Shown here piece after piece: positions 17,056-20,706 of a stretch of 64,000 bases of DNA. The notes under the pieces were generated by a model, which was given only the letters and a program-made list of their open reading frames with translations, did no database searches and was not told the origin of the DNA. The position numbers and the translations under genes are program-made. Position 1 is the stretch's first letter. Each line of letters begins with the position of its first letter. The stretch comes from Thermoanaerobaculia bacterium (GTDB lineage Bacteria > Acidobacteriota > Thermoanaerobaculia > Multivoradales > Multivoraceae): the NCBI GenBank assembly GCA_035546295.1, contig DATKBT010000076.1, positions 804 through 64,803 of the forward strand, in the 5' to 3' direction.

Positions 17056-20000
17056 TCAGCCCGCAGCGCGCCGGCCCGAGAGGAGCTGCGCCGCCAGGTA
17101 GCCACCGACCAGGAGCAGACCCACGATCAGCGCCACGGTGGCAATCGCGAACTGGCGATTCATCGTCGCGACCTCGCCCGCCAGGCGCTGGGCGGGATGC
17201 TTCGACAGATCGAGCGCGCGCACCACGACCAGCCAGCCGTCGTCCGAGACGCGCGCGAAGCCGCTGGCGTAGCCGCCGTCCATCGCCTGCCCCTCGGCCG
17301 GCTCCTCAAGCAACGGGTCGGCGAGCGGCTTCGCTCCCGACCGGCCTCGGGGCACCTCGCTCGCGGGCGCCCAGACCGGCAGCGGCGTGCCGCTCGCCCG
17401 CGACTCGTCGAACAGCGGATTTCGAGGGTGCACGACGAGCTGGCCGCGCTCGTTGACCAGCACCACGTCGAGCGCCGGCATGCCATCGGCTCCCTTCGGT
17501 CCGACCACCGCCTCCGGGATCTCGCGGATCCAGTCGGCGAAGTGGCCGAGGGTGATCGTCCCCAGCAGGATGCCGAGCGGGCGCGAACCGCTCTCGGGAC
17601 CCTCGCCCGGCGGCCAGACCGGGGTCGAGACCGCGACCATCGCTTCCCCCTCCTGGGCGCGCGAGACGAACGGCTCCGAGAGGTAGGTCGAGCGGATCGG
17701 CGCGTCCTCGGGGTTGCCGCCGTGAAAGTAGTCGCGATAAGCGAAGTTCCTGCCGTAGAGGTTCTCGCTGAACGGCGCCCGCGCCCGCGAGATGCCGTCG
17801 GCGTCGGTGAACGCCATGCTGAACAGCCCGGCGCCGTTGTAGTCCTCGAGCCGCAGCTGCATCAGGACCTGGAGCGGCGCGTCACGGGCGCCCCCCCACT
17901 CCTGGGCCGCGACCATGCGCCGCAGCTCCCGGTCCGAGGCGACCCGCTCGACCGCCGCGGTCGCCGACCACAGCTCGCGCTCGAGGGCGCGCGCCACCCA
18001 GTGGGCGGCTGCCCGGTTGGTCTCGAGCACCTGGGAGAGCAGCTCCTCCTGCGAGCGGGCTACCGCCTCGCGGTAGCGCTCCGCCTGGATCCAGACCAGC
18101 GCGCCGCCGGTGAGCGCCAGCAGGGCGAGAGCGACCGCGGCCAGGAACGAGCGCCGCTCCCGGCGCCGACGCTCCTCGGCCCGCTGCGCGGCGAGGCGCG
18201 CCGACTCCTCGCGCTCACGCTCCGCGGCGAGGCGCGCGGCGCGCCGCTCAGGCAGGCTGCGGAGGCGCTCGGCCAGCTCGGTTGCGCTCGCCAGTCGTCG
18301 TGACGGATCGACGTCGACGCAGCGGGCGATGTCGTCACGGAGCTCGGGGTCGTCGATCAGCCGATCCCAGCCGTGCCCGAGCGCGCGCTGGACGTCCCCC
18401 ACCGCGAGCTGGAAGAGCACCACTCCGAGCGAATAGAGGTCCGACTGGATCGTCGCCGGCTCGCCGACCAGGAGCTCGGGCGCCATGTAGGCCTGTGTGC
18501 CGCTCCCCGAGCTCGAGCGTGTGGTGGCCAGCGCCTGGGTGACGCCGGCGCGCGTCTCCTCCGCGTCCATCTCGGGCTCGATCAGCGAGCCGATGCCGAA
18601 GTCGGTCAGCCAGACCCGCGGCGCACCGTCCTCGATCGCGAGCAGGATGTTGGCGGGCTTGACGTCCTTGTGGAGCACGCCGACGCTGTGTGCGGCGGCC
18701 AGCGCGTCGGCGACCCTGGCCGCGATCTCGAGCCGCTTGGCGAGCGGGATGTCGTCGAGCGAGCGGTCTCCCTTCGCCCAGTCCGCGAGGCTGCCGTCGC
18801 CGTGGTACTCGGACTCCAGGAAGTACGGCTGATCCTCGATCTGCCAGTCGAGCAGCCGAGCGATGTCGGGGCGACCGCCGAGGCTTCGCTGGAGCAACCG
18901 GAACAGCGCGACCTCGCGCTTGAGCGCGCGCAGCTGCTCGGCCTCGAAACAGAACTTGAAGGCGCGCCGCGTGCCGAGCCCGCGATGCTCGGCGAGCCAC
19001 ACCTCGCCGAAGCCGCCGGAGCCGAGCGGGGCGCGCAGCTCCCATCCGGGCCGCGTCGGGATCTCCTGGCCGATCGCGGGCCGCCAGCCGAGGATCTCCT
19101 CTTCCTCGGGCACCACCGCGCGCCGGCCGCGACCGGAGTCCGGCGGCGGCTCGAGCGGGGACAGCCCGGCGATCCCCACCTCGAACACCTCGAAGGGGTC
19201 CTCGGAGCCGGGCAAGAGATAGGCGCCGTGCGCGCGCCACTCGATCCCGCGGCGCGCCTCGCCCGTGCCGCCTCTCGTGTCCTCTGCCAACTCCTGGCCC
19301 GGCTCCGCGCTCGCGCGGCCCTGCGTGTCTTCGCTCGACTCTCCGCTGTGTCCGCCCACGCCGGCGGCCGCCGAGCCACTCGCGGCCTCGGCCTCCCGCT
19401 CGAGGAACTCCCGACGCGCAGGGTCGAACGCCGCGGCGCTCGACAGGATCTGATTCGGCAGCGCCAGCGCCGTGAGCCGGCCGGCGATGCGCAGCGTCCT
19501 CGTGGGGTCGCCGCCACCTCCCCCGAGCCGCCCGCCGATCATCACCACGTCGCCGAGATGGATCGCGACCCGCGCCGCGCCGCCCTCCCGCCGGCAGACC
19601 TCGACCAGCGCCAGCGCCGCACGCACCGCGTCGGCGGGCACGTCGAAGGTCGCCAGCCGGGTCTGCTCCCCGACCTCCTCGAGGTCGGCGGGCGCCGACT
19701 GCGCCAGGCCGTTGTGATCCGAGACCGCTCGGCGCAGCGCGCTCTCGAGCTCTTCGAGCCGATCGTTGCCGTCCCCCTCGAGCTCGACGTAGAGCACGGT
19801 CTGGAACAGGCGCCGCACCAGGTTCGGCTTGGAGGCGCTGCTCAGCGATCGTGAGGTCCCGGTCACGCGCTCGGAGAGCCGACGCAGCTCGTCCGACAGC
19901 TCGTCGCTGCTCGGGTAGCGGTGGGTGCGGTCCTTGACCAGGCAGCGCTCGAGCAGGGGCCACAGCAGCGCCTTCTCGCCCGACTGGAAGGGTTCGGGCG

Positions 20001-20706
20001 ACGGCTCCTCGCGGACCATCCTGGCGATCATCTCCGGGAGGGTCTCGGCCGCGAACGGGTGCACGCCGGCGGCGAGCTCGTAGAGCATCGTGCCGAACGA
20101 GTAGAGGTCGGAGCGTGGATCGACCGGCTTGTTTTGGAGCTGCTCCGGAGACATGTACTGGATCGTCCCCAGCATCATTCCGGCCTCGGTCTCGGCCTGT
20201 GTCGGCGCGCTGGCGAGCAGCGAGTCGGTGCCCGTGATCTTGGCGAATTTGGCCAAGCCGAAATCGAGCACCTTCACCCGCCCCTCGGGGCTGACCATGA
20301 TGTTGCTCGGCTTGAGGTCGCGATGCACGATGCCGCGCCGGTGCGCGGCGGACAGCGCGTCGGCGACCTGGACCGCGACCTCGAGCACGTCGGCGAGTGC
20401 GGGAGTCCCCTGCCACAGCCGATCGAGGGTCGTTCCCTCGACGCGCTCCATGGTCATGAACAGCACGTCGTCGTGTTCCTCGACCGAGAAGACGGTGACG
20501 ATGTTCGGGTGATTCAGTGCCGCGATCGCCCGCGCCTCGCGTTGGAAGCGGGAGCGCCGGTCGTCGTCCTCGGCCATCGAGGGCGGCAGCACCTTGAGGG
20601 CGACGCGGCGCCCGAGCCGCTCGTCCTCGGCGAGGTAGACAGCACCCATCCCCCCCGCGCCGAGCTTCTCGAGCACGTTGTAGTGGGCGATGCGGGTGCC
20701 TTCCAT
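17056..20706 (-). CDS. tandem Ser/Thr protein kinase with degenerate nucleotidyl-cyclase-like domain, two TM helices and periplasmic Cache-like sensor
   Basis: 1216 aa. Kinase 1: GAGGMGAVYLAED ... HRDLKPSNIMV ... DFGLAK ... SPEQ. Cyclase-homology-like stretch: VLYVELEGDGN ... VAIHLGDVVMIGG. Kinase 2: GSGGFGEVWLAEH ... HKDVKPANILL ... DFGIGS ... APE. Then coiled coil, TM (FLAAVALALLALTGGALVWI), about 280-aa Cache-like segment (YRDYFHGG ... STYLSEPFVS ... VAVSTPVW), second TM (FAIATVALIVGLLLVGGYLAAQLL) and an 8-aa tail. ATG at 20706 checked; GGAGGAG sits 15 nt upstream. Confidence 0.8.
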   Translation of the reverse strand: MEGTRIAHYNVLEKLGAGGMGAVYLAEDERLGRRVALKVLPPSMAEDDDRRSRFQREARAIAALNHPNIVTVFSVEEHDDVLFMTMERVEGTTLDRLWQGTPALADVLEVAVQVADALSAAHRRGIVHRDLKPSNIMVSPEGRVKVLDFGLAKFAKITGTDSLLASAPTQAETEAGMMLGTIQYMSPEQLQNKPVDPRSDLYSFGTMLYELAAGVHPFAAETLPEMIARMVREEPSPEPFQSGEKALLWPLLERCLVKDRTHRYPSSDELSDELRRLSERVTGTSRSLSSASKPNLVRRLFQTVLYVELEGDGNDRLEELESALRRAVSDHNGLAQSAPADLEEVGEQTRLATFDVPADAVRAALALVEVCRREGGAARVAIHLGDVVMIGGRLGGGGGDPTRTLRIAGRLTALALPNQILSSAAAFDPARREFLEREAEAASGSAAAGVGGHSGESSEDTQGRASAEPGQELAEDTRGGTGEARRGIEWRAHGAYLLPGSEDPFEVFEVGIAGLSPLEPPPDSGRGRRAVVPEEEEILGWRPAIGQEIPTRPGWELRAPLGSGGFGEVWLAEHRGLGTRRAFKFCFEAEQLRALKREVALFRLLQRSLGGRPDIARLLDWQIEDQPYFLESEYHGDGSLADWAKGDRSLDDIPLAKRLEIAARVADALAAAHSVGVLHKDVKPANILLAIEDGAPRVWLTDFGIGSLIEPEMDAEETRAGVTQALATTRSSSGSGTQAYMAPELLVGEPATIQSDLYSLGVVLFQLAVGDVQRALGHGWDRLIDDPELRDDIARCVDVDPSRRLASATELAERLRSLPERRAARLAAEREREESARLAAQRAEERRRRERRSFLAAVALALLALTGGALVWIQAERYREAVARSQEELLSQVLETNRAAAHWVARALERELWSATAAVERVASDRELRRMVAAQEWGGARDAPLQVLMQLRLEDYNGAGLFSMAFTDADGISRARAPFSENLYGRNFAYRDYFHGGNPEDAPIRSTYLSEPFVSRAQEGEAMVAVSTPVWPPGEGPESGSRPLGILLGTITLGHFADWIREIPEAVVGPKGADGMPALDVVLVNERGQLVVHPRNPLFDESRASGTPLPVWAPASEVPRGRSGAKPLADPLLEEPAEGQAMDGGYASGFARVSDDGWLVVVRALDLSKHPAQRLAGEVATMNRQFAIATVALIVGLLLVGGYLAAQLLSGRRAAG

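Follow-up and report, generated by a model that had tools for sequence, protein, structure and literature searches.

What kind of protein is encoded by a gene that joins two kinase domains, a segment resembling a nucleotide cyclase and a membrane-bound sensor in one reading frame, and which of these parts can still be expected to work? The question is raised by positions 17056 to 20706 of a 64-kb stretch of DNA (hereafter the window, 64,000 nucleotides in all) from an uncultured Thermoanaerobaculia bacterium. The product of the gene is a receptor Ser/Thr kinase in the inner membrane of this acidobacterium (Acidobacteriota). Among the known bacterial receptor Ser/Thr kinases it counts as a new variant; more narrowly, it is an atypical member of a large family of cyclase-kinase receptors that has gone unstudied. 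From the N- to the C-terminus the protein comprises a Hanks-type kinase (K1), a cyclase homology domain (CHD), a second Hanks-type kinase (K2), a charged helix, a transmembrane (TM) helix (TM1), a periplasmic double Cache (dCache) domain of about 310 residues, a second TM helix (TM2) and a tail of seven residues, and we hold this whole architecture to be nearly certain. The main interest of the locus lies in the large undescribed CHD-kinase family to which it leads, and in the gain of a second kinase within that family, which is linked to the loss of cyclase residues.

The features of the gene are listed below by window coordinates and strand, with amino-acid (aa) positions and the basis of each assignment in brackets.

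17056..20706 (-), whole gene, 1216 codons and stop codon (open reading frame listing, translation, NCBI match)
19912..20682 (-), K1, a canonical RD Hanks kinase (aa 9-265; Pfam Pkinase, motif positions, identity to single-kinase Ser/Thr kinases)
19162..19809 (-), degenerate class III CHD (aa ~300-515; profile against the PDB, residue mapping)
19252..19401 (-), low-complexity insertion within the CHD, specific to the window protein (aa 436-485, 50 residues; alignment, composition)
19054..19161 (-), CHD-to-K2 linker with the signature LGWRPxxGQEVP at L539-P550 (aa 516-551; invariant alignment columns)
18232..19053 (-), K2, a non-RD Hanks kinase of the CHD-linked family (aa 552-825; Pfam Pkinase 105 bits, family-wide residue conservation)
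18151..18231 (-), Arg/Glu/Ala-rich juxtamembrane segment leading into TM1 (aa 826-852; sequence)
18082..18150 (-), TM1 (aa 853-875; hydropathy)
17152..18081 (-), periplasmic double-Cache sensor of the dCache_1 type (aa 876-1185; profile, AlphaFold2 model, Foldseek)
17080..17151 (-), TM2 (aa 1186-1209; hydropathy)
17056-17079 (-), seven-residue cytoplasmic tail and stop codon (position after TM2)

An earlier note, made from the letters of the window alone, had read the locus as a single giant open reading frame (ORF) of 1216 aa, and this was borne out. The frame runs from the ATG at 20706 (MEGTRIAHYNV...) to its stop codon with no frame change or internal stop, and its product is identical to NCBI HVS64220.1, a protein from a Thermoanaerobaculia metagenome-assembled genome (MAG) that is annotated only as 'protein kinase'. 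The mechanical ORF spans 17056-21738 (-), since the upstream DNA (~70% G+C) has no stop codon, and the start was set at ATG 20706, whose residues form the same start in the full-length orthologues P0002 and P0003.

The segment between the two kinases was nearly silent when searched as a single sequence. No Pfam match is found in aa 286-555 of the window protein even at E<=10, so that by gathering score the protein is not a member of Guanylate_cyc (PF00211), for which it gives 0 matches, and the sole hint is a weak match of aa 479-531 to the end of the TIGR04510 cyclase domain of NCBIfam. Taken singly, this blank would wrongly speak against a cyclase, and a profile of seven homologues was therefore needed; Guanylate_cyc itself is matched individually by four of the seven aligned tandem homologues. 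When the middle regions of seven tandem proteins (the window protein and P0002-P0007) were combined into one profile and searched against the PDB, they matched Rv1900c/LipJ (1ybt, E=7.6e-17), Ma1120 (E=2e-11), CyaC (E=5.2e-9) and the beta subunit of soluble guanylyl cyclase (E=2.8e-6). By this profile similarity the middle segment is a genuine CHD, homologous to solved class III cyclases, and the window copy is among the most eroded.

In class III cyclases, the Lys of the C-terminal 'KG' strand is taken to have a phosphate-binding role. The window protein was aligned to Rv1900c and Ma1120, the residue roles being those described for Ma1120 (PMC4215837). At the two metal-binding Asp positions it carries Glu308 and Gln348, the transition-state Asn is replaced by Arg406 and the Lys of the KG strand by Pro499; Arg410, at the position of the transition-state Arg, is alone kept of the class III catalytic residues. 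At the second metal Asp position the orthologues have Ala, and at the first all seven of the closest tandem proteins have the same Glu. The domain is also interrupted by the 50-residue insertion, which is missing from P0002 and P0003 and which, being of low complexity, accounts for the local G+C peak with which it coincides. Thus the degenerate class III cyclase domain that the earlier note had placed between the kinases is upheld, by the profile match and by the residues E308, Q348 and P499 alike, and catalysis is not to be expected of a copy whose key catalytic residues are replaced.

The kinases on either side are of a different quality. Pfam Pkinase (PF00069) recognizes two stretches in the whole protein (266.6 bits), the best being K1, and K2 alone reaches 105 bits against a cut-off of 31.7; since every motif named in the note is present, its description of two complete Hanks domains stands. 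K1 scores above the cut-off and carries every catalytic motif of a Hanks-type Ser/Thr kinase (G16-x-G-x-x-G21, K38, E57, H128-R-D130, N135, D148-F-G and S186-P-E). With 50-54% identity to single-kinase acidobacterial Ser/Thr kinases, as compared with 35-48% to the K1 domains of other tandem proteins, it is an ordinary acidobacterial Hanks kinase that was added at the N-terminus in the lineage of the window protein. A second Hanks-type kinase gene is present elsewhere in the window (42218-43075, (-)), and its product is 45% identical (tblastn) to the K1 region of P0002.

K2 also has a complete catalytic set, including the VAIK Lys, the HRD Asp and the DFG Asp (G562...G567, K584, C586, E598, H679-K-D681, N686, D702-F-G-I-G-S and A742-P-E). 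In a set of 150 K2-type kinases, all have the beta3 Lys, 145 the catalytic Asp, and 142 each the Asn and the DFG Asp; HKD is the majority form (95, versus 49 with HRD). A Cys two residues past the beta3 Lys (FKFC), which in the window protein is C586 (window 18949-18951), occurs in 150/150 of these CHD-linked kinases and, judged by its conservation, is an unexplained signature of the K2 family near the ATP site. By a published definition, bacterial pseudokinase families are those that have lost the Lys of VAIK, the Asp of HRD or the Asp of DFG (bioRxiv 10.1101/2025.01.12.632604); under that residue-loss definition K2 classifies as a non-RD kinase of a distinct family and not as a pseudokinase. 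Both kinases are apparently working, every catalytic residue being kept.

The CHD and K2 belong together in proteins found far beyond this genome. A whole-protein search returned six further proteins with the order kinase, middle domain, kinase (P0002-P0007, 38-73% identity), among which the full-length orthologues P0002 and P0003 keep the entire architecture, so that the order kinase-pseudocyclase-kinase-TM-Cache-TM, which the earlier note suggested looking for in other genomes, does recur elsewhere. Searching 1.84 billion cluster representatives exhaustively with a profile gave 893 matches at E<=1e-30, so that the family comprises at least that many sequence clusters; the window protein is one of the seven sequences that built the query profile, and its membership therefore rests on its linker, its FKFC motif and the TM helix after K2. 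It shows a CHD followed by the LGWRPxxGQEVP linker, an FKFC kinase and a TM helix. Of 156 proteins analysed (the window protein with its near homologues, and the listed matches of the family search), 104 are CHD-K2-TM and 17 (~10%) have a kinase before the CHD; others have extra TM helices. Representative members pass Pfam Guanylate_cyc and carry WD40, TPR or dCache modules after the TM helix. The relatives P0227 and P0307 have the order CHD-K2-TM-dCache-TM and adjoin the window clade in the K2 tree, a quick neighbour-joining tree made without support values; the branch nearest to the window protein thus ends in TM-dCache-TM as well.

A scan of one genome per species for the linker peptide pattern (LGWRP...) found 65 loci, every one of them in a MAG. 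The MAGs come from Planctomycetota, Verrucomicrobiota, Acidobacteriota, Sumerlaeota and a deltaproteobacterium, and many contain several loci; 57 of the loci are CHD-K2 and six are K1-CHD-K2. No NCBIfam model describes the CHD-K2 family, the best being TIGR04510 with 120 bits against a cut-off of 400, and no description of it was found in the literature on cyclase-kinase fusions or bacterial tandem Hanks kinases. The core CHD-K2-TM-sensor unit is thus a large uncharacterised family in Planctomycetota, Verrucomicrobiota and Acidobacteriota. Another tandem kinase-CHD-kinase protein of the same class is encoded in locus L065 (Thermoanaerobaculia Co_bin.310, ORF 2369-6046); it has a low-complexity insert of SAAEE repeats in its CHD, at a position other than that of the window protein, and a different C-terminal region after the TM helix.

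Within this family the state of the cyclase residues goes with the presence of an N-terminal kinase, as seen when the 139 analysed proteins without K1 are compared with the 17 that have it. The first metal Asp is an Asp in 133/139 proteins without K1 and in 5/17 with K1 (11 of the latter have Glu), the second in 138/139 and 8/17, respectively, and both together in 133/139 and 4/17. The transition-state Arg is kept throughout (139/139 and 17/17). For the KG-strand Lys the counts are 112/139 without K1 and 0/17 with it, and for the full D-D-R-(K/R) set 113/139 versus 0/17. Fisher tests give p ~2e-11 for both the two-Asp and the full-set comparisons, the proteins being counted as independent and their kinship ignored. 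In the linker scan, the full set is kept in 0/6 K1-bearing loci (five of them new, L063 being the contig of P0007), and single-kinase loci mostly keep it.

In the K2 tree the tandem proteins occur in nine or more separate places, which, together with K1 being nearer to single-kinase Ser/Thr kinases, suggests several independent fusions; repeated independent gain of K1 is likely on these sequence relationships. It is possible, though doubtful as a general statement, that the CHD-kinase-TM-sensor proteins form a large undescribed receptor class coupling a class III cyclase, with its metal-binding and other key residues kept, to a Hanks kinase, and that each fusion of a second kinase in front of the cyclase would turn it into a dimerising pseudo-enzyme scaffold of an intramolecular two-kinase cascade. 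The CHDs of the parent family (P0216-P0364) have a peculiarity of their own: the transition-state Asn is replaced by Asp in 111/139 members without K1, and at the position that specifies the base, four residues ahead of the second metal Asp, many different residues occur (E, K, D, Q, N, I). Judged by these residues, even the 'intact' parent CHDs may not be conventional adenylyl or guanylyl cyclases.

The sensor at the other end of the protein was likewise recognized through its relatives. The Pfam dCache_1 model (PF02743) stays below its 45-bit cut-off, with 18.8 bits for the whole protein and 23.5 bits for the fragment, and the relative P0234, which matches the periplasmic domain of the window protein with E=5.9e-36, passes it with 45.8 bits. 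In phmmer, the family members P0234, P0227 and P0307, all without K1, match the periplasmic domain with E values from 6e-36 to 2e-15. As long as the C-terminus was represented by three close orthologues only, a profile search against the PDB gave no match, and an AlphaFold2 (AF2) model of the periplasmic part from the 3-row alignment was unusable, with a predicted local distance difference test score (pLDDT) of 37.7. The addition of three distant relatives found by phmmer rescued both the search and the model. The six-homologue profile matches the dCache ligand-binding domains of PctC (6.2e-6), followed by those of CtaA, Mlp37, PctA/B and KinD, and the six-sequence AF2 model (pLDDT 76.7, predicted TM-score 0.74) shows two alpha/beta modules and, at the N-terminus, a long helix.

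When this model was compared with the PDB by Foldseek, nearly all of the 50 listed matches were solved dCache domains, from chemoreceptors or histidine kinases, and three were integrative receptor models; over the list, E values go down to 3.4e-10 and the target-normalised TM-score up to 0.77. The model thus presents the double PAS-like fold and long N-terminal helix of a dCache domain, flanked by TM helices, and on the strength of the model and its Foldseek matches the periplasmic segment is a structured double Cache domain. A low-confidence first AF2 model shows one helix over aa 849-924, that is, the last juxtamembrane residues, TM1 and the first dCache helix, and the juxtamembrane segment (aa 826-852) is taken to be a helical stalk. 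The layout that the earlier note had given, a Cache-type module between two TM helices with a short tail, agrees with the PctC profile match, with P0234 above the Pfam cut-off and with the model and its Foldseek matches; its lengths were somewhat off, the periplasmic part having ~310 rather than ~280 residues and the tail 7 rather than 8.

As to what the sensor may bind, the motif for amino-acid recognition in dCache_1AA domains consists of Y121, R126, W128, Y144 and D173 in PctA numbering, and the D173N exchange alone abolishes PctA function (PMC8915833). In the window protein these positions are R986, R991, Y993, F1013 and T1050, so that one of the five is kept, and, judged by this alignment, the dCache is not an amino-acid sensor of the known type. 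The pocket region RNFxYRDxF...SEPxVS is conserved among proteins that are 30-40% identical, and the retained Arg and conserved pocket are compatible with a ligand bearing a carboxylate, which is a guess.

The position of the sensor behind its kinases had been described in the earlier note as an inverted topology for a receptor kinase, a view that does not hold for bacteria: a kinase followed by a C-terminal TM helix is the arrangement met most often among bacterial Ser/Thr kinases (25/42 families), in which the eukaryotic order is rare (bioRxiv 10.1101/2025.01.12.632604). Ligand-binding Ser/Thr kinases linked to dCache domains are also documented as a class, and the signalling TM helix of Cache receptors has been described as always C-terminal to the dCache (PMC8915833). 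Given that only seven residues follow TM2, any signal must leave the sensor through its first helix and TM1. The note's further point, that the signal would have to travel backwards through TM1, is therefore right in so far as this route is atypical for a Cache sensor; it is not unique to the window protein, being common to the dCache-bearing relatives without K1, P0227 and P0307, which also have TM-dCache-TM after the kinase.

Together, these results are best explained by a receptor with a dCache sensor, two apparently working kinases and a dead CHD, combined with the mechanism proposed below, an overall explanation that we consider somewhat better than evenly supported. The mechanism taken by itself is read from the anatomy of the protein and is put forward tentatively, the chances being rather against it. 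A small-molecule ligand other than an alpha-amino acid would bind the periplasmic dCache, and the change would be carried by the long first dCache helix through TM1 to the charged juxtamembrane segment, TM2 serving only as an anchor. The arrangement of the membrane-proximal, non-RD K2 within a dimer might be altered in this way. The class III cyclase fold normally works as an obligate head-to-tail dimer, and the dead CHD, perhaps still able to bind a nucleotide, could hold the dimer together as a scaffold that positions K1 and presents it to K2. RD kinases normally need phosphorylation of the activation loop; K1 would be activated by phosphorylation as a second-tier kinase and would then phosphorylate downstream targets, candidates for which are FHA-domain proteins such as a nearby FHA-EAL protein.

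The gene for that protein (368 aa, window 10766-11869, (-); FHA 66.8 bits, EAL 138.8 bits) is found ~5 kb further downstream, on the same strand as the kinase gene, and is kept at the same relative place in the three orthologous contigs L001-L003. Its product could be a phospho-threonine reader linking the kinase to c-di-GMP turnover.

Several points weigh against this picture. Since the Glu at the first metal site does not vary among the seven closest tandem proteins, the CHD pocket seems to be still under some constraint, and the domain may bind a metal or nucleotide instead of being a pure scaffold. The order of events from K2 to K1 is drawn just from the RD versus non-RD distinction and the domain order, and activity, dimerisation, ligand binding and the sequence of phosphorylations are all deduced from anatomy. 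As the K2 tree carries no support values and the Fisher test ignores phylogeny, repeated gain of K1 is suggested, not proven. The link to the FHA-EAL protein is one of proximity among close relatives, and the 43%-identical homologue P0004 lies in an unrelated neighbourhood.

Upstream of the kinase gene, two further features were placed:

21189-22916 (-), rpoD, 575 aa, conserved upstream neighbour, given for context only (91% identical to the L001 rpoD)
21127-21184 (-), two G+C-rich hairpins just past the rpoD stop codon (folding, comparison with orthologous loci)

The orthologues P0002, on a 141-kb contig of an NCBI MAG, and P0003, on two contigs from JGI metagenomes, are 72-73% identical to the window protein and provide the contigs L001-L003. 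All three share the order rpoD (with Sigma70 r1-r4 domains), kinase, convergent MacB-type permease, nitrilase, FHA-EAL, DUF72 and MatE; in the window these genes are arranged alike, and their products are 72-91% identical to those of L001. The rpoD linkage looks like inherited gene order, because the neighbourhood of P0004 is unrelated, and a functional link to rpoD was rejected, the synteny being confined to close relatives.

The distance of 480 bp from rpoD given in the earlier note is accurate, the spacer (window 20707-21188, both genes on one strand) measuring 482 bp. It is ~350 bp longer than in the orthologues (116-134 bp), and for the extra length there was no Rfam match (15000-24000 scanned) and no consensus promoter or terminator. 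The terminator-like hairpin reported there fared less evenly. The gene does lie behind a conserved hairpin: the second one (21127-21146) recurs in the orthologous loci and has TTTT after it there. In the window itself the hairpins lack a U-run, their folding energy is no better than that of shuffled sequence (z = -0.64), and scanning the spacer for a consensus terminator gave no match.

Between the kinase and the MacB-type permease, the window contains a 450-aa ORF (15654-17006, (+)) that is absent from L001-L003 and has a sub-threshold match to a 3-keto-disaccharide hydrolase (20.1 bits versus 26.8). Four paralogous, duplicated MacB_PCD/FtsX permease genes also occur in the 64 kb (13054-15471, 32997-35408, 46933-49329 and 58014-60395, all (+)).

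Other explanations of the protein differ in what they take the parts to do. The dCache could be only a membrane anchor or localisation module, the kinases being controlled from the cytoplasm, for example through nucleotide binding by the CHD. Signalling through an N-terminal TM helix is indeed atypical in Cache receptors (PMC8915833), the amino-acid motif is broken, and the extracytoplasmic part is freely swapped within the family between WD40, TPR and dCache modules; but a pocket conserved at 30-40% protein identity, a model with a complete two-module fold and the documented ligand-binding dCache Ser/Thr kinases (PMC8915833) make a mere anchor unlikely. K2 might, as the earlier note proposed from its HKD and DFGIGS motifs, be a pseudokinase scaffold that leaves K1 as the only catalytic domain, a proposal to which its long activation loop and its lower Pfam score than K1 could be added. 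It is quite improbable, since K584, E598, D681, N686, D702 and the APE motif are all kept, as they are in 142-150/150 relatives, HKD is the commoner form in the family (95 versus 49), and none of the residues whose loss defines bacterial pseudokinase families is missing (bioRxiv 10.1101/2025.01.12.632604). A still working adenylyl or guanylyl cyclase, which would make the protein a bifunctional cyclase-kinase receptor, is very improbable. Its fold is homologous to active cyclases, R410 is kept, Glu308 could in principle bind metal and the parent family retains both metal Asp; Ma1120, moreover, is active without the canonical Asn, so that such deviations are not always lethal (PMC4215837). These arguments are met by Gln348 at the second metal Asp and Pro499 at the KG Lys, by Ala at the second Asp in the orthologues, by the failure of Pfam Guanylate_cyc to recognize the segment and by the 50-residue low-complexity insertion that breaks the domain.

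Two further explanations concern the identity of the gene rather than its parts. An anti-phage defence kinase of the PD-T4-6 type or resembling MADS6 was suggested by strong PADLOC matches to the PD-T4-6 and mad6 models and by an NCBIfam antiphage_MADS6 match, and was rejected because these matches are confined to the generic kinase domain (best stretch aa 7-281); the MADS6 score is 238.9 against a cut-off of 460, and the gene lies among syntenic housekeeping and transport genes (rpoD, MacB-type permease, nitrilase, MatE), with no defence island, which leaves this identity highly improbable. Hardly credible at all is an assembly or annotation artefact joining two genes, K1 and a cyclase-kinase receptor, even though the G+C peak and low-complexity stretch at ~19250-19400 might have marked a join, and K1 and the rest of the protein have different nearest relatives. 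The same architecture is uninterrupted in P0002 and P0003 at 72-73% identity and occurs in distant tandem proteins of other phyla, and the ORF has no stop codon or frame change. The worry about a chimeric assembly voiced in the earlier note is dispelled by two distinct, collinear, full-length orthologues on three contigs with conserved neighbours, and by this comparison a chimera is ruled out for practical purposes.

Bacterial Hanks kinases have been studied mostly as single-kinase receptors, and scaffold pseudo-enzymes, well known in eukaryotes, are little known in bacteria. The family offers a natural series, with relatives that retain both metal Asp and other key residues, the dead cyclase described here, and one versus two kinases, which could reveal the role of a cyclase fold beside a kinase and the way in which a Cache domain signals along the helix at its N-terminus. 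In practical terms its value is modest: the protein comes from an uncultured acidobacterium and is annotated only as 'protein kinase'.

The nearest counterparts are the CHD-Hanks kinase-TM-sensor receptors (P0218, P0220, P0221, P0227 and P0307), which share the CHD subtype, the LGWRPxxGQEVP linker, an FKFC and mostly HKD K2 and a single TM helix after the kinase; the window protein differs by its extra N-terminal kinase and by a CHD without both metal Asp and the KG Lys. Receptor kinases of the PknB/PrkC type also have a cytoplasmic N-terminal kinase, a C-terminal TM helix and an extracytoplasmic sensor, and K1 is a standard RD kinase, but here there are two kinases and a CHD, a dCache in place of PASTA repeats and a second TM helix. 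The model for the PASTA kinase PknB/Stk1 (NF033483) matches the kinase domains only, with 374.5 bits against a cut-off of 450, and Pfam gives no PASTA match. With dCache_1 domains (PctA/B/C, Mlp37, CtaA, DctB, KinD) and dCache-linked Ser/Thr kinases (PMC8915833), the window protein has in common a two-module Cache between two TM helices and a recognizable R-x-aromatic region; in contrast to these receptors, its outputs are N-terminal to the sensor, TM1 instead of a C-terminal TM helix would carry the signal, and the amino-acid motif is not kept. Rv1900c/LipJ (1ybt) and Ma1120, the closest solved class III cyclases, have a homologous catalytic-domain fold and the transition-state Arg, from which the window CHD departs by its replaced metal Asp pair and KG Lys and by the 50-aa insertion.

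Two kinase domains in one chain, an arrangement that allows intramolecular regulation, are known from JAK, a pseudokinase-kinase, and from plant tandem kinase proteins. The homology is limited to the kinase fold: the two kinases of the window protein both look catalytically complete, are separated by the CHD and belong to a bacterial membrane receptor. Finally, the animal receptor guanylyl cyclases and the TIGR03903 TOMM fusions likewise place a kinase fold directly N-terminal to a class III CHD, in one polypeptide and in a receptor context; the TOMM kinase/cyclase fusion model itself reaches 231.2 bits, mainly over K1, against a cut-off of 705.75. In the animal receptors the kinase homology domain is a pseudokinase, and the window protein has these roles mirrored, with a kinase that looks active beside a cyclase that looks dead; its sensor is at the C-terminal end, and after the CHD comes a second kinase. 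If the recurrent switch from cyclase to scaffold is real, these receptors would be the mirror image of the animal enzymes, in which the kinase is the dead partner.

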